From Candidatus Thorarchaeota archaeon SMTZ1-45 (GTDB lineage Archaea; Asgardarchaeota; Thorarchaeia; Thorarchaeales; Thorarchaeaceae): a stretch of 29,531 bases of DNA. The stretch is from positions 1 through 29,531 of the forward strand of contig LRSL01000057.1 in the NCBI GenBank assembly GCA_001563335.1, written 5' to 3'. How positions within the stretch are numbered: the stretch's first letter is position 1; every line of letters starts with the position of its first letter. Positions 12,751 through 29,531 of the stretch are shown here, piece by piece. The position numbers and the translations under genes are program-made. A model generated the notes under the pieces. It was not told where the DNA came from. It ran no database searches and saw only the letters and a program-made list of their open reading frames with translations.

Positions 12751-12945
12751 TATCACTTAACCTCCCAAATAAGGCTACTAGGATTCACTGGAACTATTCA
12801 AATTCAAGATTAATAGAGAAAAAGGAGCGAAGAGCGGTAAAAGAATCCTTCCAAGACTGTTGCTTAAACTCGATCTGTTTCTCTTGCGACTCTTCCCATA
12901 ATGTATAACTGCTTGGAGTCCAAATGGAGTTTCTTGGTGCTTTTA

Positions 12946-13929
12946 ATGTCAGAATCAGAAAATCGCTTGCTCTATATTTCACAAGCAGACATCAATAGAA
13001 TCAACATTTCCATAAGGGAGATAATCGAACAACTTGAAGTCGCATTTGCAGAAAAAGCAGAGGGACGAATTGAAATGCCACCAAAACCGGGAATCCATCC
13101 TGGCAATGGTGACAATTTCATTCACGCGATGCCTGCATACATTCCCGCGATGAAGTCTGCAGGAGTTAAATGGGTTAGTGGTTTCCCACAAAACCAAGAG
13201 AGAGGGTTGCCATACATTTCTGGTCTATTGATTCTGAATGATCCGGAAACAGGTTTACCAATCTCAGTGATGGACTGTGTGTGGATTACAGCTAAACGAA
13301 CGGGTGCTGCAACTGCAATTGCTGCGAAACATCTGGCACATCCCGAGTCATCGGTCGTTGGTATTCTAGGCTGTGGTGTTCAGGGTCGGAGTAATATCGA
13401 AGCTCTATATGTCGACTTCCCTCTCAAACAAGTGATGGCATATGATATTGATCCTGAAGCTTCTGCTAAGTATGCAACAGAGATTGAAGAGCGTCATGGA
13501 TTGGAAGTGATACGTGTCGACCATCCCAAGGATGCAGTGTCTGGATGCGACATTATAGTGACGGCAGGACCGATTCTGAAGACACCACATGCAACAATAC
13601 AGGCGGGATGGATGGATGAGGGTGCCTTTGCCTCCCTAGTGGACTTTGATTCATATTGGCATCCTGATGCGATGAGGGAGTCTAACAAATTCTGTACCGA
13701 TGATATACCACAACTCCGACATTACCAGGAAGTAGGTTACTTTCAAAATATTCCTCCAATTTATGCAGACCTGGGCGAGTTGGTCGCTGGACTCAAGTTG
13801 GGGAGAGAAACACCTGAGGAACGCACTATCGCATGCAACCTTGGACTAGCCATAGATGACATGGCTGTTGCACCATTACTGTATGAAAAAGCAATCGAGA
13901 AAGGAATTGGCACGTGCCTGCCATTGTAA
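12946..13929 (+). CDS. Ornithine cyclodeaminase / mu-crystallin / archaeal alanine dehydrogenase family protein
   Basis: MPPK, MPAY....AGVKWV, ITAKRTGAA, Rossmann GILGCGVQG, GLAIDD. Likely start ATG 12946 (the track starts at 12901). Confidence 0.88.
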   Translation: MSESENRLLYISQADINRINISIREIIEQLEVAFAEKAEGRIEMPPKPGIHPGNGDNFIHAMPAYIPAMKSAGVKWVSGFPQNQERGLPYISGLLILNDPETGLPISVMDCVWITAKRTGAATAIAAKHLAHPESSVVGILGCGVQGRSNIEALYVDFPLKQVMAYDIDPEASAKYATEIEERHGLEVIRVDHPKDAVSGCDIIVTAGPILKTPHATIQAGWMDEGAFASLVDFDSYWHPDAMRESNKFCTDDIPQLRHYQEVGYFQNIPPIYADLGELVAGLKLGRETPEERTIACNLGLAIDDMAVAPLLYEKAIEKGIGTCLPL

Positions 13930-17201: not shown

Positions 17202-17229
17202 GAAAAGTAGCAAAGGAAAATGGAAGGAG
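17202..17229 (+). repeat. Highly degenerate partial copy of the vhuU-3' repeat
   Basis: gaaaagtagcaaaggaaaatggaaggag versus gaaaagagaaaggatggaaggag. Sits exactly at the junction where the ocd fragment begins. Confidence 0.4.
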
Positions 17230-17532
17230 CTCGCTTCTTTAGTGGACTTTGATTCCTACTGTCACCCTAACGAATTAAGGGAGTCCGACAAATTTTGCAT
17301 TGACGATGTTCCTCAACTCCGTCATTACCAAACAATGGGTTATTTTCAAGACATTCCTCCAATTCATGCAGATTTAGGGGAGCTGGTGGCGGGTCACAAA
17401 CCTGGTCGAGTAACTTATGATGAACACACTATCACGTGCAATCTCGGACTAGCCATGGATGATATGGTTGTTGCTCCATTGGTATATCAAAGAGCACTTG
17501 AGATAGGAATTGGCACCTGGTTACAATTGTAG
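17230..17532 (+). pseudogene. Orphan 3' fragment of the ornithine cyclodeaminase gene (duplicate of 13627-13929)
   Basis: The 96 codons at 17242-17529 align without gaps to 13639-13926, with 69/96 identical residues by manual count and many synonymous changes. The 5' two-thirds of the gene are absent. Confidence 0.88.
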
Positions 17533-17540
17533 ATTAAGAC

Positions 17541-17578
17541 TGAAAAGAGAAAGAATGAAAGGAGTGTGACCGAAGCAC
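17541..17578 (+). repeat. Direct repeat copy of the vhuU SECIS 3' arm/terminator
   Basis: tgaaaagagaaagaatgaaaggagtgtgaccgaagcac versus the native copy at 21832, tgaaaagagaaaggatggaaggagtgcgaccagcgcac. Confidence 0.85.
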
Positions 17579-17790
17579 TAAGTCGAGGAAGATTTCTCAT
17601 TCTGCATATCCCATCATCTTGATCTTTGCAATCCTTTTCATTTCGAATAGAAATCTATTGTCAAACTAGAGTTTTGGTATTTCTATTGCTTTTTAAAGGA
17701 ACCTTAAAAATCATGCCAAGTGATTATTCTAAATTAATCCAGTAATAATAATCGAGAAAGAAGCTGTCACTTAAAAATGAGGTCAAAACA

Positions 17791-18231
17791 ATGGTTTATC
17801 GTATTAAGAATATAGAGCAATTCACAGATTTGTGGACGACCATCTATAATACCAAGGGTAGACCTGATTGGTCTCATATCCTACAGTATTATGATGAAGA
17901 CATTTACTTTCGTGATTGTATTCAAGAAATACATGGTATGAGAGAATTCAAGGCAATGACTGAACGCCTGACCAACAGATCACAAGATTTGAAGATGAAG
18001 ATAACAAACATTATGATGGAAGGTAAATTGTTGTTTTTCGAGTGGGAGATGACACTGAACTTCAGGCAAACGCGAACTTCAACTATATACGGACTTAGTA
18101 GAATCACCCTAAATGAGGAAGGGAAAATCATAGAGCAAAGAGACTACTACGACCTGTGGGGCGATGTTTTCGATAATATCCCAGGTATTTCCAAAGTGTA
18201 CAGGATGTTCATGAAGAAGTTATTCGGGTGA
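17791..18231 (+). CDS. SnoaL-like / NTF2-fold protein
   Basis: YYDEDIYFRD...I.G, FFEW.M, EEGKIIEQRDYYD signature of SnoaL_2 proteins. Confidence 0.82.
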   Translation: MVYRIKNIEQFTDLWTTIYNTKGRPDWSHILQYYDEDIYFRDCIQEIHGMREFKAMTERLTNRSQDLKMKITNIMMEGKLLFFEWEMTLNFRQTRTSTIYGLSRITLNEEGKIIEQRDYYDLWGDVFDNIPGISKVYRMFMKKLFG

Positions 18232-19079
18232 CTGGTTTGAGTAAAATCAAGTATCTAAAACAATACAAGCTTTCCAACGTCTTTGCTATGATGCGTAATA
18301 ACCGAAAAAAGCCAGAGGTATGTAATGATGATTTCAAAGGACGCTTGGTGATCATTACAGGTGCTACATCAGGAATCGGGTATCAAGTAGAATGCGATTA
18401 CAAGATCGCAGATTTTGCAAGATTACCTGATGTACGCAAGGTTGGAAAGGAGCTTTTAGAATCTGACCTAGAAATCGATGTTCTTATCCATAATGCTGGT
18501 CTTTATTCAACGAAGAAGATATACACCGAAGATGGTAATGAGCTCGTGTTTCAAGTGAACTACCTTGGTTCTTTCATCCTGAATTACATGTTAAAGGATA
18601 AATTGAAGGCACAAGGAAAAACACGCATCATCCTTGTCAATTCAGAGGGTCATCGTTTTGCTGTGTTTGGTATAGGACTGTATGACCTCAAATATGAGAA
18701 GCGTCGACATTCTGGCTTGGGAAGCTATGGCGTTGCGAAAACTGGACAGCTTCTTTCGATAATAAAATTTGCAGAATATTTCGAGGATAGTGGCGTAACC
18801 ATAAATGCTGTGCACCCTGGAGATGTCAAATCCAATATGGGCCTAAACAATGGTCGATTGTATCGTTTCTTTAAGACGAAAATTGTTAACCGAACCTTGA
18901 AATCACCTGAAAGATCAGCAACTGCGTTATACTATCATGGAGTTTCAAAAGAAGTCGAGGGAATAAGTGGGAAGTTCTTCAATCTTACAACCGAGGAAGA
19001 ACCTGCACCTCCAGCACTGGATCGAGATGTAGCGGAGGAGCTCTGGCATAAAACAATAGAATTGGTGGGTCTAGAGTGA
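18228..19079 (+). CDS. Short-chain dehydrogenase/reductase with an apparent in-frame internal deletion (possibly inactive)
   Basis: TGATSGIG, HNAG, VNYLG, YGVAK, VHPG motifs. GIGYQ runs directly into VECDYKIADF, so the usual helix-strand-helix of the Rossmann fold is missing. Confidence 0.78.
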   Translation: MTGLSKIKYLKQYKLSNVFAMMRNNRKKPEVCNDDFKGRLVIITGATSGIGYQVECDYKIADFARLPDVRKVGKELLESDLEIDVLIHNAGLYSTKKIYTEDGNELVFQVNYLGSFILNYMLKDKLKAQGKTRIILVNSEGHRFAVFGIGLYDLKYEKRRHSGLGSYGVAKTGQLLSIIKFAEYFEDSGVTINAVHPGDVKSNMGLNNGRLYRFFKTKIVNRTLKSPERSATALYYHGVSKEVEGISGKFFNLTTEEEPAPPALDRDVAEELWHKTIELVGLE

Positions 19080-20707
19080 GCGAGAAAAGTCATCAAACGA
19101 TTGTTGTTGGTGGGGGCATGTCAGGATTGACCGCTGCTGCTTATTTATCAAAAACAGGACATGACGTCCTTTTGCTAGAGAAGAACAAAGGATGCGGCGG
19201 ACTCCTTAACTCATTTCAGCGAGAAGGATTCACATTTGATGCAGGTGCAAGATCAATCCTAAATGCGGGAATAATTCACCCGATGTTAAAAGAACTCGGA
19301 ATTGAGCTTGAATTTCTTGATAGCCCCGTTTCAATAGGAATCGAGAATGATGTTATCAATCTTGATTCGAAAACTAGCTTGGATGACTATAAACGATTGC
19401 TAGAGAAATTGTATCCCGAAAGCATCAACGATATCGACAAGATCATCTCGAAAATTGAGGGAATTATGAAAGACATGGCGATTTTGTACGGTATTGATAA
19501 TCCTAACTTTAGAGATATGAAGAATGACAGAGCTTATCTCAAAGAACTCCTTCCTTGGTTGGGAAAATTCATATTCGCCTTACGTCGAATGAACCGACAG
19601 AACGAACCTGTTGAATCTTTTTTGGAGAAACTGAGTTCAAATCAATCCCTAATCGATATCATTGCCCAGCATTTCTTCAAGAAGACACCGACCTTTTTCG
19701 CCTTGGGTTACTTCTATGCATATACTGATTACATATATCCAAGGGGAGGCACAGGCGAGTTACCAAAGGCAATCATGGAAAAAATCATTGAAAAGGATGG
19801 AAAAATCCAGACAGGTACCAAAATTGTAAAAGTCAATCTTTCTGAAAAAGAAGTGAAGGATAAGGATGGTAACTCGTATTCATTCGATTCTCTCATCTGG
19901 AGCGCGGATTTGAAGACACTATATAGAATATTAGACACCCGTGGTTTGGATGAGAAAATTACTCGAAAAATCTTCGAACAGAAGGAGCTTCTTCTTTCAA
20001 AACATGGTTGCGATTCTGTTTATTCAATGTTCATTGGTGTAGATATGCCCTTGGAAGCTTTTAGCTCTATTTCAAATGGACATTTCTTCTATACACCATC
20101 GAAAAAAGGCTTGGGAGAGTTACATTGGTCGGAACTCGATTCTTTAATCGAGAATTATGAAACTACATCTAGGGAACAAATTCTGCAGTGGTTGAACAAA
20201 TATTGTCAATTAACGACATATGAGATTTCAATTCCTGCTTTTAGAAACCCCGCATTGGCTCCTGAGGGGAAAACGGGTTTGGTAATAAGCATGCTCTTTG
20301 AATACGATTTAATGAAAAAAGTCAAGGATGCCAATTGGTATGAAGAATTCCGTATCGAGATCGAAAACCGCATGTTGGATACCCTCTCGAATTCTATCTA
20401 TCCAGGTTTGAAAGACAAGGTAATCTTTCAATCATCTTCAACCCCACTCAGTATTGAATCGGTAGCAGGAAGTTCAGAAGGGGCGATCGTGGGTTGGTCG
20501 TATAAATCACCCGTTCCCGTTGTAAACAATCTCCGAAAGATTTCTAGCTCAGTGAAGACGTCGATTCCAAATGTATACCAAGCAGGTCAATGGGCCTATA
20601 GTCCAGCGGGAATACCTACTGCAATCCTCACAGGCTGGTACGCTGCCAAAAATGCTATGAAGACCAAAAATGAAAAAAAATTGAAAAGAGAAAAGACGGA
20701 GGTGTGA
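19076..20707 (+). CDS. Phytoene desaturase-like FAD-dependent oxidoreductase
   Basis: IVVGGGMSGLTAA..L...G..V.LLEK....GG, FDAGA, YPRGG, C-terminal IPNVYQAGQW....AG...A..TG. Confidence 0.85.
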   Translation: MSEKSHQTIVVGGGMSGLTAAAYLSKTGHDVLLLEKNKGCGGLLNSFQREGFTFDAGARSILNAGIIHPMLKELGIELEFLDSPVSIGIENDVINLDSKTSLDDYKRLLEKLYPESINDIDKIISKIEGIMKDMAILYGIDNPNFRDMKNDRAYLKELLPWLGKFIFALRRMNRQNEPVESFLEKLSSNQSLIDIIAQHFFKKTPTFFALGYFYAYTDYIYPRGGTGELPKAIMEKIIEKDGKIQTGTKIVKVNLSEKEVKDKDGNSYSFDSLIWSADLKTLYRILDTRGLDEKITRKIFEQKELLLSKHGCDSVYSMFIGVDMPLEAFSSISNGHFFYTPSKKGLGELHWSELDSLIENYETTSREQILQWLNKYCQLTTYEISIPAFRNPALAPEGKTGLVISMLFEYDLMKKVKDANWYEEFRIEIENRMLDTLSNSIYPGLKDKVIFQSSSTPLSIESVAGSSEGAIVGWSYKSPVPVVNNLRKISSSVKTSIPNVYQAGQWAYSPAGIPTAILTGWYAAKNAMKTKNEKKLKREKTEV

Positions 20708-20718
20708 TGATCGCACCT
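20682..20718 (+). repeat. Degenerate direct repeat copy of the vhuU SECIS 3' arm/terminator
   Basis: tgaaaagagaaaagacggaggtgtgatgatcgcacct shares tgaaaagagaaa, ggaggtgyga and cgcacct with the other copies. It supplies the last codons and stop of the desaturase gene. Confidence 0.65.
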
Positions 20719-20864
20719 CATACTCGTGAAAAAATAATCAGAAAAGCAATCAATGCAATAACAACCGACACCATGTAAACCCATTTTGCTTTCCCATTAC
20801 TCTGTTTCTGTGCTCTGGCTGCTGCAGCAGCACCAGCACCAGCAGTACCGCCAATCCAAGCCAT
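20718..20864 (-). CDS. 48-aa small tail-anchored membrane protein (not in ORF track)
   Basis: MAWIGGTAGAGAAAAARAQKQSNGKAKWVYMVSVVIALIAFLIIFSRV*. Strong SD-like GGTGGTGA just upstream of the ATG. Single C-terminal TM helix. Confidence 0.65.
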   Translation of the reverse strand: MAWIGGTAGAGAAAAARAQKQSNGKAKWVYMVSVVIALIAFLIIFSRV

Positions 20865-21011
20865 TCAATATCACCACCTAAGACTTCTGATAATTTACTG
20901 ACCTAAATTGTGGATATTTATACGTGTGATTCTTGATGTTACGAAATTGGTCATGAAGAAGGAGCAAGTCAACAAAGATAGAACATCGAGATTCGTAAAT
21001 GAGCTTTGGAA

Positions 21012-21054
21012 CGAAAAGAGAAAGAATGGAAGGAGGTGCGACCAACGAACCTTT
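21012..21054 (+). repeat. Direct repeat copy of the vhuU SECIS 3' arm/terminator
   Basis: gaaaagagaaagaatggaaggaggtgcgaccaacgaaccttt has about 4 differences from the native copy at 21833-21873. Confidence 0.9.
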
Positions 21055-21066
21055 ACTTGGACAATA

Positions 21067-21621
21067 TTATTCTCGAGTCTTTGAGTCTTTCAAAAACTGT
21101 TCTAGTATGTCTTGTATCTCAAGCATGCTTGAGGTAGAATGGATGTAATCAAGATCAAGGTTTTCATGATTTCTGACGAAAATTCCAAGAGCATCCCTCA
21201 AGTCTTGCTCTCCTTGGAAGAGAATCTTATTTACGAATGTATCTTCAGCAGAACCAATCATGATTGTTGTACCAAACAGGTTTACTGGGATCGCTCTCTC
21301 AAGAGTGAGTCTATCAAATTCAGAATATACTCCTTGAATGTCTAAACGAAGTAGACTATCTCTGAAGAATAATGTACTGTGTGATTTTTCACGAAGGGCA
21401 GTTTGAATATCCTCGACTGAAGCCGCAAATCCTTTTGACTCTAGAAATTCAACAAAGGGGGGTATAGCATCCTCCTCAATCTGAAGTATGAAGTCAATAT
21501 CGACCGTAGTTCGAGGAACACCATGATACATGACGGCGACTCCTCCAACCACTACATAGCTGATTTTATTTTCATCCAAGTAGGAACAGACAAGTTGCAG
21601 AATCTCAGGGAATTCTTCCAT
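21067..21621 (-). CDS. Nucleotidyltransferase-fold protein (DUF6036/AbiEii-like), putative toxin
   Basis: YVVVGGVAVMYHGVPRTTVDIDF Pol-beta-type motif and C-terminal K......QD..D. Confidence 0.8.
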   Translation of the reverse strand: MEEFPEILQLVCSYLDENKISYVVVGGVAVMYHGVPRTTVDIDFILQIEEDAIPPFVEFLESKGFAASVEDIQTALREKSHSTLFFRDSLLRLDIQGVYSEFDRLTLERAIPVNLFGTTIMIGSAEDTFVNKILFQGEQDLRDALGIFVRNHENLDLDYIHSTSSMLEIQDILEQFLKDSKTRE

Positions 21622-21774
21622 CTATCTATCACCAGCTATCCTCAACGCCAATGCTGAGAGTTTTAGTCCCATTGTGAGAGTTTCAAGACCTGTATAGCGT
21701 CTAGCTTCGATAGCAGTTCTCACTTGGTCAAGGTCTCTTCTACGCTTCACTTGTTCAGCAATAGTGTTTGTCAT
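21622..21774 (-). CDS. 50-aa basic protein, putative antitoxin partner (not in ORF track)
   Basis: MTNTIAEQVKRRRDLDQVRTAIEARRYTGLETLTMGLKLSALALRIAGDR*. GAGGAG SD upstream. Its TAG directly abuts the ATG of the nucleotidyltransferase. Confidence 0.65.
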   Translation of the reverse strand: MTNTIAEQVKRRRDLDQVRTAIEARRYTGLETLTMGLKLSALALRIAGDR

Positions 21775-21831
21775 TCTCCTCGCACTACGACTATAACTAT
21801 ACTACTCATATATTCTACTATTCATATTTGG

Positions 21832-21873
21832 TGAAAAGAGAAAGGATGGAAGGAGTGCGACCAGCGCACCTTT
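21832..21873 (-). terminator. Pyrimidine-rich tract ending the hdr/vhu operon; native copy of the ~40-bp repeat
   Basis: Minus strand ...GGTCGCACTCCTTCCATCCTTTCTCTTTTC immediately after the SECIS. U/C-rich tract typical of archaeal terminators. Confidence 0.55.
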
Positions 21874-21934
21874 GCGGGGTGTGTCTGACGCGGCTCGTTT
21901 GTTTGCAGCCGCGCCTTCATCCGCCGCCGGTCAC
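21857..21934 (-). promoter_or_regulatory. Eukaryote-type SECIS element (selenocysteine insertion sequence)
   Basis: AUGAA (21920-21916) / AGAC (21886-21883) GA-quartet core. 9-bp helix GGCGCGGCU/AGCCGCGUC. Apical loop GCAAACAAACG with unpaired AAA. Basal 10-bp helix GUGACCGGCG/CGCUGGUCGC. Confidence 0.85.
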
Positions 21935-22069
21935 TAGCTCCTTCCTGACTAACTCGCGACCCTCATCGTCAACAATGACCAAATGAGCGCCGCATGATAG
22001 TCAGCAGTCGTAACACCGAACCACCATCTCAATGAGGTTCAGTATTCCTTCAGGTATTTCGTCCGTCAT
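21917..22069 (-). CDS. vhuU: [NiFeSe]-hydrogenase small peptide VhuU, selenoprotein (UGA at codon 23, 22001-22003)
   Basis: MTDEIPEGILNLIEMVVRCYDC(U)LSCGAHLVIVDDEGRELVRKELVTGGG*. Equivalent to the L2 motif R.YDP(C/U)xSCxxH that VhuA lacks. GGTG SD, ATG 11 nt after the vhuA stop, downstream SECIS. Confidence 0.92.
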
Positions 22070-22080
22070 GATTTACACCA

Positions 22081-23397
22081 TTATCTTTTTACCATAGGCT
22101 CAGGGAGAGTGAGACCCTCGTGAGCCTTGTCCTCAAATATCTGCTTGGCTGCGACCATGAGGCTCTTCTCGATGCCTGCGATGTTGTTGTTTGTCGCAAC
22201 GACCAGATTTGCTTTAGTAAGCATTCCTTTGTCATCTGACACATAGTTATGCATCAGTATTCCACGGGGAGCCTCAACAATACCCACGCCGTTTCCAGCC
22301 TTAGGTTCAACATCTGAAACCTTCACATCAGTGTCACAAATATCTGGATCATTCAGAAGTTTGGCAATCCATTCGAATGCTTGGACCGTTTCCACGATTC
22401 TCGCATAATGGTATGCAAATGTATGATGCGATGGTCTGCCAACAAGTTCCCGCATCTCTTTTAGCGCCGCGTCAGCTAGTGGAGTAGCCATCCTCTCATT
22501 AACATTACACCTTGCTAAAGTATTGGCTCTCCAGATACCTTCGGGATATCCTGCTGGTTTGTAGTACATGTGAGTTGCGTAGCTGTGCTTTGCTACATGT
22601 TCACCATAGTACTTTCTATAGTCCTTTGGTTCAAAGTCAGCGACGATCTCACCACCAGGCTCTTGAACTCGAACAGTGCCATCATAGATGTCAAGTGTAC
22701 CTTTGTTTGAGAGACCTATGTAGTACGTCGGAGTAACCGCAACCTTCGTAATAACATCCAGATAGTCAGTAACAACCTTCTTCGCAAGGTCCACGGTGTT
22801 CAGAGTCAATTGCTGAATCTCCTCAAGGCGACCTAGAAAGAAGTCACGATCCTCCTCCTTCATAGAAGTGAGCATTCCACCAGGAATTGCAGTGGTGGGG
22901 TGGATTGCTTTTGCACCTACGGTCTTAATCAGTTCTTGACCAAACTCCATCATCTTGATTGCTTGAACAGCTACATCAGGTAGGTCTCGTAAGACAGCAG
23001 CAACATTCCTATCAGCAGGATTCGCAAAAGGTCCATAGACAAAGTCTGGAGCAGCAAGAGCATAGAAGTGGATGACATGTGAGGAGAACTGCTTCGCCTC
23101 AATCATCAGTCTTCGCAGTTTGACTGCTGTCGGAGTTGGAGTCACATCCCATGCAGCCTCCACAGCTTTTACTGAGGCAAGATGGTGTGGAATAGGACAG
23201 ATGCCGCAGATTCTTGGAGCAATCCTTGGAGCTTCCTCCATTGGTCGACCCTCAAGGAACTTCTCAAAGAATCGAGTGGAGTTAACATTGAACTGTACAT
23301 CTTTCACTTTTCCATCTTTTCCAAGTTTCAGTGTTAGAGACCCATGTCCTTCAAGTCGAGTGACTGGATCAATTCTGATTGTCTTACCTTCGGTCAT
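22081..23397 (-). CDS. vhuA: Group 3c [NiFe(Se)]-hydrogenase large subunit, split form lacking the C-terminal L2 motif
   Basis: IDPVTRLEGH, R.FEKFL.GR, L1 motif RICGICP..H, EAPRG.L.H. No DPCxxC at the C-terminus. Confidence 0.92.
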   Translation of the reverse strand: MTEGKTIRIDPVTRLEGHGSLTLKLGKDGKVKDVQFNVNSTRFFEKFLEGRPMEEAPRIAPRICGICPIPHHLASVKAVEAAWDVTPTPTAVKLRRLMIEAKQFSSHVIHFYALAAPDFVYGPFANPADRNVAAVLRDLPDVAVQAIKMMEFGQELIKTVGAKAIHPTTAIPGGMLTSMKEEDRDFFLGRLEEIQQLTLNTVDLAKKVVTDYLDVITKVAVTPTYYIGLSNKGTLDIYDGTVRVQEPGGEIVADFEPKDYRKYYGEHVAKHSYATHMYYKPAGYPEGIWRANTLARCNVNERMATPLADAALKEMRELVGRPSHHTFAYHYARIVETVQAFEWIAKLLNDPDICDTDVKVSDVEPKAGNGVGIVEAPRGILMHNYVSDDKGMLTKANLVVATNNNIAGIEKSLMVAAKQIFEDKAHEGLTLPEPMVKR

Positions 23398-24317
23398 GTT
23401 TTCTTGACCTCCTCGCGCTTGATTCGTATTTTCCCAAGGTAACTTGTAGGATAGTCGAACCTATAGAATGTGCCAAGTGGGTCTTTTACCTGTTCCTTTA
23501 TTTCTTCAGGTGGAAGAGGAGCATATGTGCCAAGCATAGCCATGGAGTTGGCGCCATGATCCTGCATTATTGGAGGAGGTGGTCCAAAACAACCCCTGCA
23601 GGTAGCGCCTTTATTCACACACTGACCTTCACATAATCCCCAGGTTGATGAACCCACACAGATGTATCCCTGCTCGAGGAGACACCTGTCTGGGTCCGCA
23701 ATCCCTTGATACGGGCGGAGAACTTTTTCAATTGGTGTTTCTTTCTTTTCACGGTCGCAATAGTGACATACAGTGTGTGGTGGGAGCTCGATTGGTTCTC
23801 CAGCCAATAGCTTGCTTACAGCTGTGAGAATTAACTTGGATGTGGGTGGACATCCAGGAAGGTAGATATCTATGTCAACATAGCTGTTGTTAGGTTTCAC
23901 AACGGGAGCGATTCCGGGAAGATTTTCGCTTGGAACTTTGCCACCAGACACAGTAAAATTCTCACGAAACTTGACATCATAACACTCCTCTATGTCAGAA
24001 AAGTTTGCTAAGCCCGGAATTCCACCAAAACATGAACAAGAACCGAATGCAATTAAAACTTGACACTTCTCCCTCATTAGTTTGAGGAGATGAATGTCTT
24101 CTTCAGTCCGAGCCATTCCTTCATATAAACCGACAACTATCGACTTATCTTCATAGCTCTCAAGGTGGTGGAGCTTGAAGTCAGCGACTGCTTGCCAATA
24201 TTTAATTTCAAGTGCAGGAAGAACTGTGGCTAAGTTTAGATGGATGTCGACTAGACTTTGGAAACATCCCCAACAAGAGCTTCCTTGGCCCATTGCAATA
24301 GAAACTGGATCCGCCAT
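23394..24317 (-). CDS. vhuG: [NiFe]-hydrogenase small subunit (MvhG/VhuG)
   Basis: SCWGC, FGSCS.FGG, LPGCPP, CHYC, CLLEQG..C.G, C.G.C......CRGCFGP. Confidence 0.9.
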   Translation of the reverse strand: MADPVSIAMGQGSSCWGCFQSLVDIHLNLATVLPALEIKYWQAVADFKLHHLESYEDKSIVVGLYEGMARTEEDIHLLKLMREKCQVLIAFGSCSCFGGIPGLANFSDIEECYDVKFRENFTVSGGKVPSENLPGIAPVVKPNNSYVDIDIYLPGCPPTSKLILTAVSKLLAGEPIELPPHTVCHYCDREKKETPIEKVLRPYQGIADPDRCLLEQGYICVGSSTWGLCEGQCVNKGATCRGCFGPPPPIMQDHGANSMAMLGTYAPLPPEEIKEQVKDPLGTFYRFDYPTSYLGKIRIKREEVKKT

Positions 24318-28156: not shown

Positions 28157-29531
28157 TCATTTTCCTTCATCAACTTTCGATAGTATGATCGTAGCTCTCA
28201 TAGCCGCAGCACTTCCTGCTGACACTGAGTCAGGGATGTCCTTTGGCCCATCAGCACACCCGCAGACGAAGACACCGTCAATTGATGTGTCAACAGGTTT
28301 GGTCATGCTGTCTTCAACACAGACATAACCCTCCTCTGAGAGGTGCATGTTCAATTCCACAGCAATGTCCGCAAGACCATCTGGAGGTTGGACTCCTGGG
28401 CTAATCACAACCATGTCATGATCCACTTGCTGTAGAAAACCAGTTTCAGTATCTTCAAATCTCACAGAGAGCAAGTCTCTCTCCTTGTTATGTAGAACTT
28501 CTGCAACTCTTCCACGTACAAAGTTTACACCGAAACGAGTCCGAGCCATCTCATAGAACTCTTCAAACCCCTTTCCAAAGGCTCGGATATCTGCGTAGTA
28601 AACGGTGACCTCCGTATCTGGATTGTGCTCTTTTGCCATCACTGCGTTTTTGATTCCATACATACAACAAACACGGCTGCAGTAAGGCACACCTTTTTGG
28701 ACGTCTCGTGCCCCTACGCATTGAATAAAACCAATACTATGGGGAACTTTGCCATCTGTGAGTCGTGTTAGATGACCATGAGTTGGTCCAGCAGCATTGA
28801 TTAGCCGTTCGTACTCCATAGCATTAATGACGTTGGGTAGCCTACCATAACCAAGTTGTGGATACTCTTCGACATCAAAGAGCTTGTATCCAGTTGCCAG
28901 AACAATAGCTCCTACATGCAAATCAATTACCTGATCCTCCATGGAGTGATTTATTGCATCTCTAGTGCAAGCATCAACACAACGTTCACACTCACAACAA
29001 ACTGAACAACCTAGACATCGCTCAGCCTCAGCTGCAGCAATGGCTTCATTGAAACCAAGCTCTACCTCTGTGAACTTACGCACCCTTGTTGTGACAGCTT
29101 GTTTTGGCATGGATGCTCTCTTTTCAATTGGTATCCCGGTCTTGTCAACTTCAAATGATTGCACTCGATGTAGATTATTCCCACGGCCCTCCCGGAGGTC
29201 TACACCACGAATATAACGGTCGATAGAGATAGCGGCCTGTTTACCATGGCCAACAGCCTTTACTACGGTAAGAGGCCCGAGGACAACATCGCCACCAGCG
29301 AATACTCCAGGCATATTGGTTTCTAGAGTGATTGGATCAGCTTTTACAGTTGCCCATTCAGAACAACTGAGTTCAGTTTGTACACCTTTTGGATCTGTTG
29401 ATTGTCCAATGGCGATAATCATGTTATCAACAGCCATGGTGAACTCTGAGTTAGGTATTGGAACAGGGCGTCTTCGTCCTGAGTGGTCTGGTTCACCAAG
29501 ACGCATCTTAACACATCTCAAGCCAATGATT
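28157..29531 (-). CDS. hdrA: HdrA-like flavoprotein with GltD-like insertion (5' truncated by window edge)
   Basis: GltD-like segment (LGEPD.SGRRRP, GVFAGGDV..GP..V..AV..G..AA, EAERCL.C) followed by the HdrA core (VGAIVLATG, CVGAR....YCSRVCC, GPKDIPDSV). Frame open to the window end. Confidence 0.85.
   Translation of the reverse strand, partial: IIGLRCVKMRLGEPDHSGRRRPVPIPNSEFTMAVDNMIIAIGQSTDPKGVQTELSCSEWATVKADPITLETNMPGVFAGGDVVLGPLTVVKAVGHGKQAAISIDRYIRGVDLREGRGNNLHRVQSFEVDKTGIPIEKRASMPKQAVTTRVRKFTEVELGFNEAIAAAEAERCLGCSVCCECERCVDACTRDAINHSMEDQVIDLHVGAIVLATGYKLFDVEEYPQLGYGRLPNVINAMEYERLINAAGPTHGHLTRLTDGKVPHSIGFIQCVGARDVQKGVPYCSRVCCMYGIKNAVMAKEHNPDTEVTVYYADIRAFGKGFEEFYEMARTRFGVNFVRGRVAEVLHNKERDLLSVRFEDTETGFLQQVDHDMVVISPGVQPPDGLADIAVELNMHLSEEGYVCVEDSMTKPVDTSIDGVFVCGCADGPKDIPDSVSAGSAAAMRATIILSKVDEGK

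Follow-up and report, generated by a model that had tools for sequence, protein, structure and literature searches.

Copies of the vhuU transcript 3' end bound variable gene modules in Candidatus Thorarchaeota

Introduction

How does a single intergenic space of an archaeal chromosome come to hold a changing set of unrelated genes, and why do copies of one short sequence stand at the borders between them? These questions are raised by contig LRSL01000057.1 of Candidatus Thorarchaeota archaeon SMTZ1-45 (NCBI GenBank assembly GCA_001563335.1), analyzed from position 1 to position 29,531; this entire stretch of 29,531 nt is referred to here as the window. It contains the selenoprotein gene vhuU behind two hydrogenase genes, and the 3' end of the vhuU transcript, including part of its selenocysteine insertion sequence (SECIS), recurs between the neighboring genes as an element of ~50 nt named here REP1. 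A sequence-only reading of the window had interpreted these copies as an integron-like cassette array in which modules were added serially at the vhuU 3' end.

Mariotti et al. in 2016 reportedly described eSECIS-like elements of Asgard selenoprotein genes. In Thorarchaeia, according to the available text of a study of such elements (PMC11227280), they have an AUGA_GA core at the base of an upper stem of 7-15 bp, an A-rich apical loop and a stop codon overlapping the AUGA. Two kinds of gene array offer themselves for comparison, again as far as the available text of the sources goes: attC clusters without an integrase (CALINs), which are reported to be enriched in Asgard archaea (Ghaly et al., 2022; PMC9668308), and the tycheposon islands of Prochlorococcus, which grew by repeated integration at tRNA 3' ends (Hackl et al., bioRxiv 10.1101/2020.12.28.424599). 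A prior description of the REP1 array was not found in the open-access literature text.

Materials and Methods

The SMTZ1-45 assembly (hereafter G000) comprises 3.54 Mb in 119 contigs and is 87.7% complete. A hidden Markov model (HMM) of REP1 with 52 positions was built from 36 copies taken from the window and its relatives. For the comparison of arrays, 20 loci were fetched from 18 genomes of the same genus, and their repeats and open reading frames (ORFs) were mapped. Genomes of the genus are labeled G, loci or contigs L, and protein families of the modules cl, each with a number.

Results

REP1 Is the 3' End of the vhuU Transcript

At its native site, REP1 forms the terminal part of the vhuU transcript, consisting of the 3' arm of the SECIS lower stem and a pyrimidine-rich tail that together make a terminator-like hairpin. 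The sequence-only reading had already assigned the repeat to the basal helix of the SECIS and the pyrimidine tract behind it, and an RNAalifold consensus of 13 native 3' ends agrees. In this consensus, a lower stem of ~18 bp (alignment columns 16-36 paired with 95-114) is kept in all 13 sequences at most columns, with some one- and two-sided changes, and a 9-bp upper stem (columns 46-54 with 66-74) shows compensatory changes in four pairs. The apical loop starts with G[U/C]AAA, a GA stands on the 3' side, and the stop TGA of vhuU falls within the AUGA of the SECIS core. Together with its 5' arm, which lies in the last vhuU codons, the native copy forms an imperfect hairpin of ~100 nt, and vhuU itself is intact in all 13 native loci.

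Within the window, the AUGA_GA core, upper stem, A-rich loop and stop codon in the AUGA that characterize eSECIS-like elements are found together at the native copy alone. The earlier statement that no additional copy keeps the AUGA hairpin thus describes the window correctly; it fails in the relatives, where several additional copies keep the whole SECIS.

A search of the window for direct repeats returned one family, comprising four copies of 38 nt at 17541, 20682, 21012 and 21832 that are 63-84% identical to the reference, copy D at 17541. All copies matched by the HMM lie on the minus strand, which is the sense of vhuU. A weak fifth copy, E, is below HMM detection at E<=10 but has an exact 10-mer in common with copies A and B; this 10-mer occurs 3 times in the window against 0.09 occurrences expected, and none of 100 shuffled sequences reached 3. 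The co-oriented copies noticed in the sequence-only reading are therefore real, with coordinates that were correct to within a few bases, and mapping of ORFs and Pfam domains confirmed that they stand at borders between unrelated modules.

Outside this locus, the element is missing from the genome. Scanning the 3.54 Mb for the 23-nt REP1 core gave three matches with up to 3 mismatches, all at this locus, and four with up to 4 mismatches, three of them here. The HMM matched four times at E<0.1, each time at this locus, with the next best match at E=3, and all significant copies lie within 4.7 kb of each other. A generic terminator scattered over the genome, the finding by which the cassette interpretation was to fall, was accordingly rejected. 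An Rfam scan of the window was without a match. Other genes of G000 are likewise followed by a GC-rich hairpin and a C/T-rich tract, for example on contigs C81, C83 and C110, and REP1 therefore looks like one particular terminator-type element rather than a new class of signal.

Arrays of REP1 and Variable Modules Occur Throughout the Genus

When vhuU with its native copy was used as a DNA query, 22 of the 24 other genomes of the genus were matched, mostly at several nearby places each; in one genome from another genus, the match was confined to the coding part of vhuU. Metagenome contigs were retrieved with a 21-base pattern, and 13 of 19 bear further permutations of the modules. A 17-base pattern searched in a genome collection returned 120 stretches, mostly chance matches in bacteria, as the pattern is too short. 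All records confirmed by the HMM are archaeal and include, among the matches listed, Thorarchaeota (9), Promethearchaeota (1) and uncultured archaeon (3).

At E<=0.01, the HMM identified 59 copies in 21 sources, with 1-6 copies per source and a spacing of 319-5151 nt (median 1356), and all 59 are co-oriented within their locus. Module families are shared among the 20 loci and 13 metagenome contigs, yet occur in differing orders and combinations. Recurrent modules include the nucleotidyltransferase pair (8 loci), an AMP-binding enzyme (6), a membrane protein of 560-600 aa (7), a subtilase (5), small OB-fold proteins (10) and double winged-helix proteins (10), and the pool further contains MNT/HepT pairs, a saccharopine dehydrogenase and a Kelch protein. 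Modules consist of 1-3 genes, have their own upstream regions, and have genes in both orientations. The expectation that cassette content bounded by the repeat would vary between relatives was thus borne out, and the genes between vhuU and the ornithine cyclodeaminase-family gene (ocd) are not fixed in the genus, which would otherwise have spoken against a cassette array.

Gene junctions are more variable at REP1 copies. Adjacencies unique to one locus made up 39 of 52 with a REP1 copy between the two genes and 76 of 183 without one (Fisher p 2e-5), a probability that overstates the case because the genomes are related and hence not independent. Three genomes that are 95-96% identical around rpoB (G015, G024 and G007) have differently arranged arrays, indicating fast turnover. 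Tandem paralogues that each have a copy of their own, such as family cl12, present twice in L023 at 25% identity, and the pairs of cl4, are consistent with growth by unequal crossing-over. Horizontal transfer of the nucleotidyltransferase module (cl7/cl8) between G024 and G015 was considered and rejected, as the module is 94.7% identical between them compared with 95.5% for rpoB.

Strictly serial addition at the vhuU end, as originally proposed, was not supported: the first slot behind vhuU holds the same toxin-antitoxin-like module in 6 of the 13 native loci, and it is the distal slots that vary. Arrays also persist in genomes in which a search did not find the vhu hydrogenase. In G002 and G013, VhuA orthologues were searched for at E<=1e-20 without a match, and the match in G024 is a paralogue with only 29% identity. 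All three genomes, which are 93-99% complete, still contain arrays with SECIS remnants. In L023, L027 and L028 (from G013, G002 and G011) and in L208, the REP1 array, SECIS remnants included, was observed behind a PEPCK gene instead of vhuU.

A Clean Joint, and Copies of Graded Extent

One clean presence/absence breakpoint at the repeat, of the kind anticipated in the sequence-only reading, was found at the vhuU-proximal copy in a comparison of G012 with G001. Their flanks are 94-97% identical, and G012 has an additional segment of 1795 bp directly behind vhuU, containing a membrane-protein gene that is now split. The alignments of the two flanks overlap by 26 nt (L035:8615-8640). This core covers the lower-stem 3' arm and the beginning of the tail, and the segment has it at either end. 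In G012, the left copy keeps the 5' part and has lost the tail, and the right copy keeps the tail and has lost the 5' part. This pattern is as expected of an insertion by crossover within the core, or of its exact reversal.

The copies have a common 3' end and ragged 5' ends, which start in the last ~22 codons of vhuU, at the SECIS, inside the SECIS, at the small hairpin or inside the lower-stem arm. Additional copies with a complete SECIS accordingly occur in relatives, and some of these also include the last ~22 codons of vhuU. The inserted DNA is thus flanked by direct repeats that each reproduce part of the target's 3' end, and the target is intact, as in islands of the tRNA type. Copies behind the cl7/cl8 module differ widely in extent, with a whole SECIS in L028 and nothing but the tail in L021, as if a part without use at this place had eroded.

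The Hairpin and Tail Are Retained

Over 41 aligned copies, the core and tail are conserved to at least 90%, and the flanking intergenic DNA does not align. Most additional copies lack the usual 5' arm and have only a local hairpin of 4-7 bp. For 12 truncated copies, folding predicts that a different stretch upstream takes over as 5' arm and pairs with the conserved 3' arm: among the last 12 bases of the core, 7.1 are paired, compared with 4.75 when the upstream sequence is shuffled, and the folding energy has a mean z of -1.55, with z<-1 in 8 of the 12. One pair of the stem changed from C-G to U-A in 12 copies. Given their conservation, their persistence in arrays of genomes where vhu genes were not found and the retained hairpin, we read the copies as kept by selection; the folding predictions suggest selection for a hairpin and tail at the end of each module, most simply as a terminator.

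Modules and Other Features of the Window

Positions of the vhuU region, the REP1 copies and the modules between them are collected in Table 1. Beyond copy E follow a Kelch-repeat membrane protein and, further on, the full-length ocd gene (12901-13929).

Table 1. Features between the hydrogenase operon and the distal REP1 copy, with positions in the window.
Feature	Positions	Strand	Basis
Hydrogenase small subunit	23394-24317	-	Pfam; operon upstream of vhuU
NiFeSe hydrogenase large subunit	22081-23397	-	Pfam; operon upstream of vhuU
vhuU, 50 codons, selenocysteine (TGA) at codon 23	21917-22069	-	Translation with TGA=U; 3'-end alignment of 13 orthologues
SECIS lower-stem 5' arm, in last vhuU codons, pairing with REP1 core	21925-21945	-	RNAalifold
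SECIS core (AUGA ... GA), upper stem and apical loop; eSECIS-like	21887-21920	-	RNAalifold
REP1 copy A (native): small hairpin, lower-stem 3' arm, pyrimidine tail	21834-21884	-	HMM E 7.7e-17
Copy A, lower-stem 3' arm	21848-21866	-	RNAalifold
Copy A, pyrimidine tail	21834-21847	-	RNAalifold
Cassette 1: 50-aa ORF (21622-21774) and 184-aa DUF6036/AbiEii-like nucleotidyltransferase (21067-21621)	21067-21774	-	Pfam
REP1 copy B	21014-21058	-	HMM E 1.9e-10, model positions 8-52
Cassette 2: 48-aa ORF	20718-20864	-	No family match (Pfam, NCBIfam)
REP1 copy C, diverged	20682-20718	-	Repeat search; HMM E 0.0042 for 20695-20718
Cassette 3: SnoaL-like (17791-18231), short-chain dehydrogenase (18228-19079), CrtI-family FAD oxidoreductase (19076-20707)	17791-20707	+	Pfam, NCBIfam
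REP1 copy D	17541-17578	-	Repeat search; HMM E 0.0033 for 17543-17573
ocd-family fragment: last 96 codons, frame still open	17242-17532	+	Pfam positions 233-312 of 314
REP1 copy E, weak: core 10-mer and pyrimidine tail	17202-17229	-	Exact 10-mer; comparison with L029

Judged from its sequence, cassette 1 is a predicted toxin-antitoxin-like pair; neither protein matched NCBIfam, and the pair (cl7/cl8) is placed after a REP1 copy in 8 loci. An 81%-identical relative of the 48-aa ORF of cassette 2 is located equivalently on metagenome contig L221, where a REP1 copy and the desaturase (the CrtI-family gene) follow it. Copy C, between cassettes 2 and 3, retains the hairpin and tail and is without the TTCCATCC part. 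On the strand opposite this copy, the CrtI-family gene has its final 8 codons and its stop (20682-20707), and the repeat therefore supplies the C-terminus of the gene.

The oxidoreductase and dehydrogenase of cassette 3 (cl9 and cl11) recur in 8 and 7 loci at differing array positions. In the window, the dehydrogenase has 283 aa compared with 317-338 aa in relatives, and its Pfam match begins at profile position 56, directly after the glycine motif; on account of this length and start, the gene may have suffered an internal deletion.

The ocd fragment is 71% identical to residues 247-342 of the full ocd gene, its truncation point directly abuts copy E, and the junction between copy D and the ocd 3' end is conserved with the relative L029. 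The fragment is roughly equidistant (72-78%) from all ocd orthologues examined, and the full copy 4 kb away is likewise distant.

A Second Array in the Same Genomes

A scan for local repeats identified a second locus-specific repeat, REP2, of ~90 nt, with 8 co-oriented copies at C86:73030-82133 (L184:7031-16134) and none elsewhere in G000. Including G000, REP2 was found in 22 of 28 genomes of the genus. Its arrays there reach 8 copies, and the modules, most of them a single gene, almost all differ between species; in G000 these encode TrmO, DUF6879, FMN reductase, prenyltransferase-like, B12 radical-SAM, DUF3368 and ICMT-like proteins. A near-invariant box of REP2 fits GTTRRRY in 33 of 35 copies, by which the repeat is possibly attC-like, and its arrays may be among the attC clusters whose enrichment in Asgard archaea is reported in the available text of PMC9668308. 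RNAalifold gave no usable consensus for REP2 from a MAFFT alignment. A common family of REP1 and REP2 was rejected, since the two models do not match each other and the arrays share no cassettes. With REP2 present as well, these genomes make a habit of repeat-bounded cassette arrays, which keeps an enzyme acting in trans under consideration.

Another repeated unit of ~90 nt was observed at C113:9971-21328 (9 units) and C12:3652-10030 (3 units, opposite strand), consisting of a conserved mini-ORF of 19 codons followed by a GA/CT-rich hairpin.

Search for a Recombinase

No integrase had been visible to the sequence-only reading, and a search for tyrosine and serine recombinases found none in the window or in G000, where PF00589 (tyrosine), PF00239 and PF07508 (serine) and PF01797 (HUH-Y1) were all without a match. 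Nor did Pfam identify a recombinase among the window genes or 20 representatives of cassette and flank families, five of which (cl12, cl26, cl27, cl41 and cl96) had no Pfam match. The family cl12 (578 aa) was rejected as a hidden recombinase, being a multi-pass membrane family with paralogues that are 25-65% identical; it is unrelated to the AMP-binding family cl14. In the genus, PF00589 matched in 8 of 28 genomes. All of these matches are on short, repeat-free contigs, and at E<=1 the models of REP1 and REP2 found nothing in the 12 integrase loci. The other 20 genomes, one of them 97% complete, have no PF00589 match, hence no XerA-type enzyme was detected in them.

On viral contigs, 8 pattern matches included no true copy of the repeat, and the sole HMM match was the pattern itself; no viral relative of the cassette nucleotidyltransferase was found either. 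A co-occurring relative is represented by contigs that follow the window as far as 20671 (runs X2 and X4) or from 20827 onward (run X1) and diverge beyond. The first of these points is ~11 nt short of copy C and the second falls within the 48-aa ORF, and neither is evidence in either direction.

Discussion

Proposed Recombination at REP1 Copies

The explanation toward which we lean, as a tentative one of less than even confidence, is a flexible island that was built and is reshuffled by recombination at its REP1 copies, probably by the homologous recombination of the host. REP1 would be the joint of this island, located throughout the genus between the convergent vhu operon and ocd gene, and segments of 0.3-5 kb with one or a few genes each would lie between its co-oriented copies. 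Recombination within the ~26-nt core would lead to gain, loss and re-ordering of segments, each insertion duplicating the core, and could proceed by unequal crossing-over, deletion, or Campbell-type insertion of REP1-bearing DNA from the arrays of relatives. Additional copies would then lose the SECIS part, as it has no use away from vhuU, and keep or rebuild a hairpin from the conserved 3' arm and tail, likely because each copy terminates the transcripts of its module. Host recombination is favored over a dedicated integrase, which appears less likely, because known recombinases were not found, the copy ends are ragged, tandem paralogues have copies of their own, and the variation resembles slow reshuffling.

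Several observations weigh against this explanation. An imperfect core of 26 nt is short for homologous recombination, and homologous recombination alone leaves unexplained how a foreign gene acquired its first REP1 copy. In three long copies from three contexts, the 5' limits fall within ~15 nt of each other, just after the CxxH codons, and are therefore better explained by a defined site. Alignment breakpoints were within 30 nt of REP1 in 95 cases, compared with 88.5 expected at random intergenic positions; they exceed a uniform-random expectation (13.5 within 30 nt). At ~80% identity alignments stop at gene borders anyway, and the statistic was dropped as support in favor of gene adjacencies. 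The contigs of four sequencing runs show the arrangement of the window and no copy-to-copy joint, so that the circles or empty sites looked for were not recovered from these low-depth contigs, in which rare variants are dropped. G000 is 87.7% complete, and a recombinase could sit in the missing part. As to the terminator, the hairpin test comprises 12 copies only, the C-G to U-A change may be a single inherited event, and a scan for bacterial-type terminators does not flag the REP1 copies.

Some of these points would be accommodated by an unrecognised site- or structure-specific recombinase, encoded on a chromosome, virus or plasmid and acting in trans, which would insert circular cassettes at the folded REP1/SECIS hairpin in the manner of integron integrases or of the integrases of tRNA-3'-end islands. 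We regard this as rather unlikely, though a serious competitor. The near-identical 5' limit of the long copies and the short, defined core duplicated at the G012/G001 indel are what such an enzyme could leave, even as the ragged 5' ends of the remaining copies are not. The co-orientation of 59 of 59 copies and the retention of the hairpin as the sequence of one arm changes, as in attC, fit it equally. The second array, with GTTRRRY in 33 of 35 copies, and the enrichment of integrase-less attC clusters in Asgard archaea (available text of PMC9668308) would provide a precedent in the same organisms, but the two array types share no cassette family and their models do not cross-match. No member of the four recombinase families was found in G000, PF00589 is unmatched in 20 of 28 genomes, the 12 integrase loci are without the repeat, and neither a true REP1 copy nor a relative of the cassette nucleotidyltransferase was found on viral contigs.

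The core boxes of attC sites are RYYYAAC (R'') and GTTRRRY (R'), and an attC folds as a single imperfect hairpin of about 55-141 nt with extrahelical bases. That the array is a canonical integron cassette array without its integrase, with REP1 as the attC, is very unlikely: GTTRRRY occurs in 0 of 41 aligned copies, which have no RYYYAAC partner, most copies have a local hairpin of a mere 4-7 bp, and genes lie on both strands, in part in multi-gene modules with upstream regions of their own. The co-oriented layout and the toxin-antitoxin-like cassettes would suit an integron, and archaeal CALINs have been reported mostly from Asgard archaea (available text of PMC9668308), but no IntI was found, PF00589 being absent from G000 and from 20 of the 28 genomes. 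For lack of the GTTRRRY box, and given the short stems, the genes on both strands and the absence of IntI, the array is not classified here as an integron; the sequence-only description as integron-like holds for its layout and not for its sites, modules or enzyme. Less probable still is that REP1 is a small mobile or spreading element, similar to a miniature inverted-repeat transposable element (MITE) or a repetitive extragenic palindrome, that settled between pre-existing genes and is unrelated to the differences in content. The same adjacency is indeed found with a copy in one genome and with none detectable in another (for example, 1 of 2 loci each for cl19/cl14 and cl12/cl9). Such an element is difficult to reconcile with a repeat that in G000 is present at this locus only, has no terminal inverted repeats and grades into full copies of the vhuU 3' end, and with a G012/G001 difference that is a gene segment of 1.8 kb rather than an insertion the size of the repeat. 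Recombination at the REP1 copies by the host's own machinery thus remains the explanation we tentatively prefer.

Significance

Asgard archaea attract study as the prokaryotes most closely related to eukaryotes, and the REP1 locus offers a concrete, repeatable case for how they gain and shuffle genes: across a whole genus, one intergenic space serves as a docking place for unrelated genes, with joints that come from an mRNA recoding element. A SECIS has here been freed from its gene, leaving only the lower-stem arm and tail, and the arrays outlive the hydrogenase genes. For annotation, this means that SECIS-like remnants behind non-selenoprotein genes in these genomes are scars and not signals.

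It is conceivable, though we consider it doubtful, that Thorarchaeota possess a cassette-capture system in which folded elements at the 3' ends of resident transcripts (REP1 and, on another contig, the attC-like REP2) are used as attachment sites, working either without a dedicated enzyme or with a recombinase of unknown family. If true, archaea would have their own version of the integron, with each site serving at the same time to terminate its cassette. The locus makes it testable whether short folded 3'-end elements can act as recombination joints, with or without a dedicated enzyme.

Comparison with Known Systems

Large chromosomal integrons of Vibrio contain toxin-antitoxin cassettes. 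The REP1 arrays similarly include a toxin-antitoxin-like pair, often next to the anchor (6 of 13 native loci), which by analogy could stabilise the array against deletion between repeats; it differs in that the DUF6036 nucleotidyltransferase pair is here only a predicted toxin-antitoxin.

The native copy resembles the Asgard eSECIS-like elements in the overlap of AUGA and stop codon, the 3' GA, the 9-bp upper stem and the G[U/C]AAA loop, and the matching form is described for frhA/vhuU-type genes of Thorarchaeia; the available text of that study gives no account of the element or its lower-stem arm being duplicated as a repeat that bounds modules (PMC11227280). With CALINs, as characterized in the available text of PMC9668308, the REP1 arrays share co-oriented repeats between small, unrelated and variable modules, toxin-antitoxin-like cassettes, repeats that are more alike within a lineage, and the absence of a nearby integrase. 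They differ in that REP1 is without R' and R'' boxes and derives from the 3' end of a resident gene, and in having modules on both strands, some with several genes. The REP1 array is therefore integron-like in layout and is not an integron.

The closer analogy is with islands that have grown from the 3' end of a target gene. The likeness to integration at tRNA 3' ends noted in the sequence-only reading holds up, in that partial copies of the target lie between insertions and vhuU is intact. Tycheposon islands and REP1 arrays alike leave the target gene intact and have pieces of its 3' end scattered between one insertion and the next; both include degenerate remnants and differ in content between close relatives (available text of 10.1101/2020.12.28.424599). 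The REP1 arrays differ in their target, a selenoprotein mRNA whose 3' end (SECIS lower stem and terminator) takes the place of the tRNA, and in their segments, which are without integrase, replication or excision genes and for which no mobility was observed. Target-3'-end islands and integron-like arrays are thus the known kinds of system to which the locus compares, and what is new here is the use of the lower stem and terminator of a recoding element as the repeated joint.

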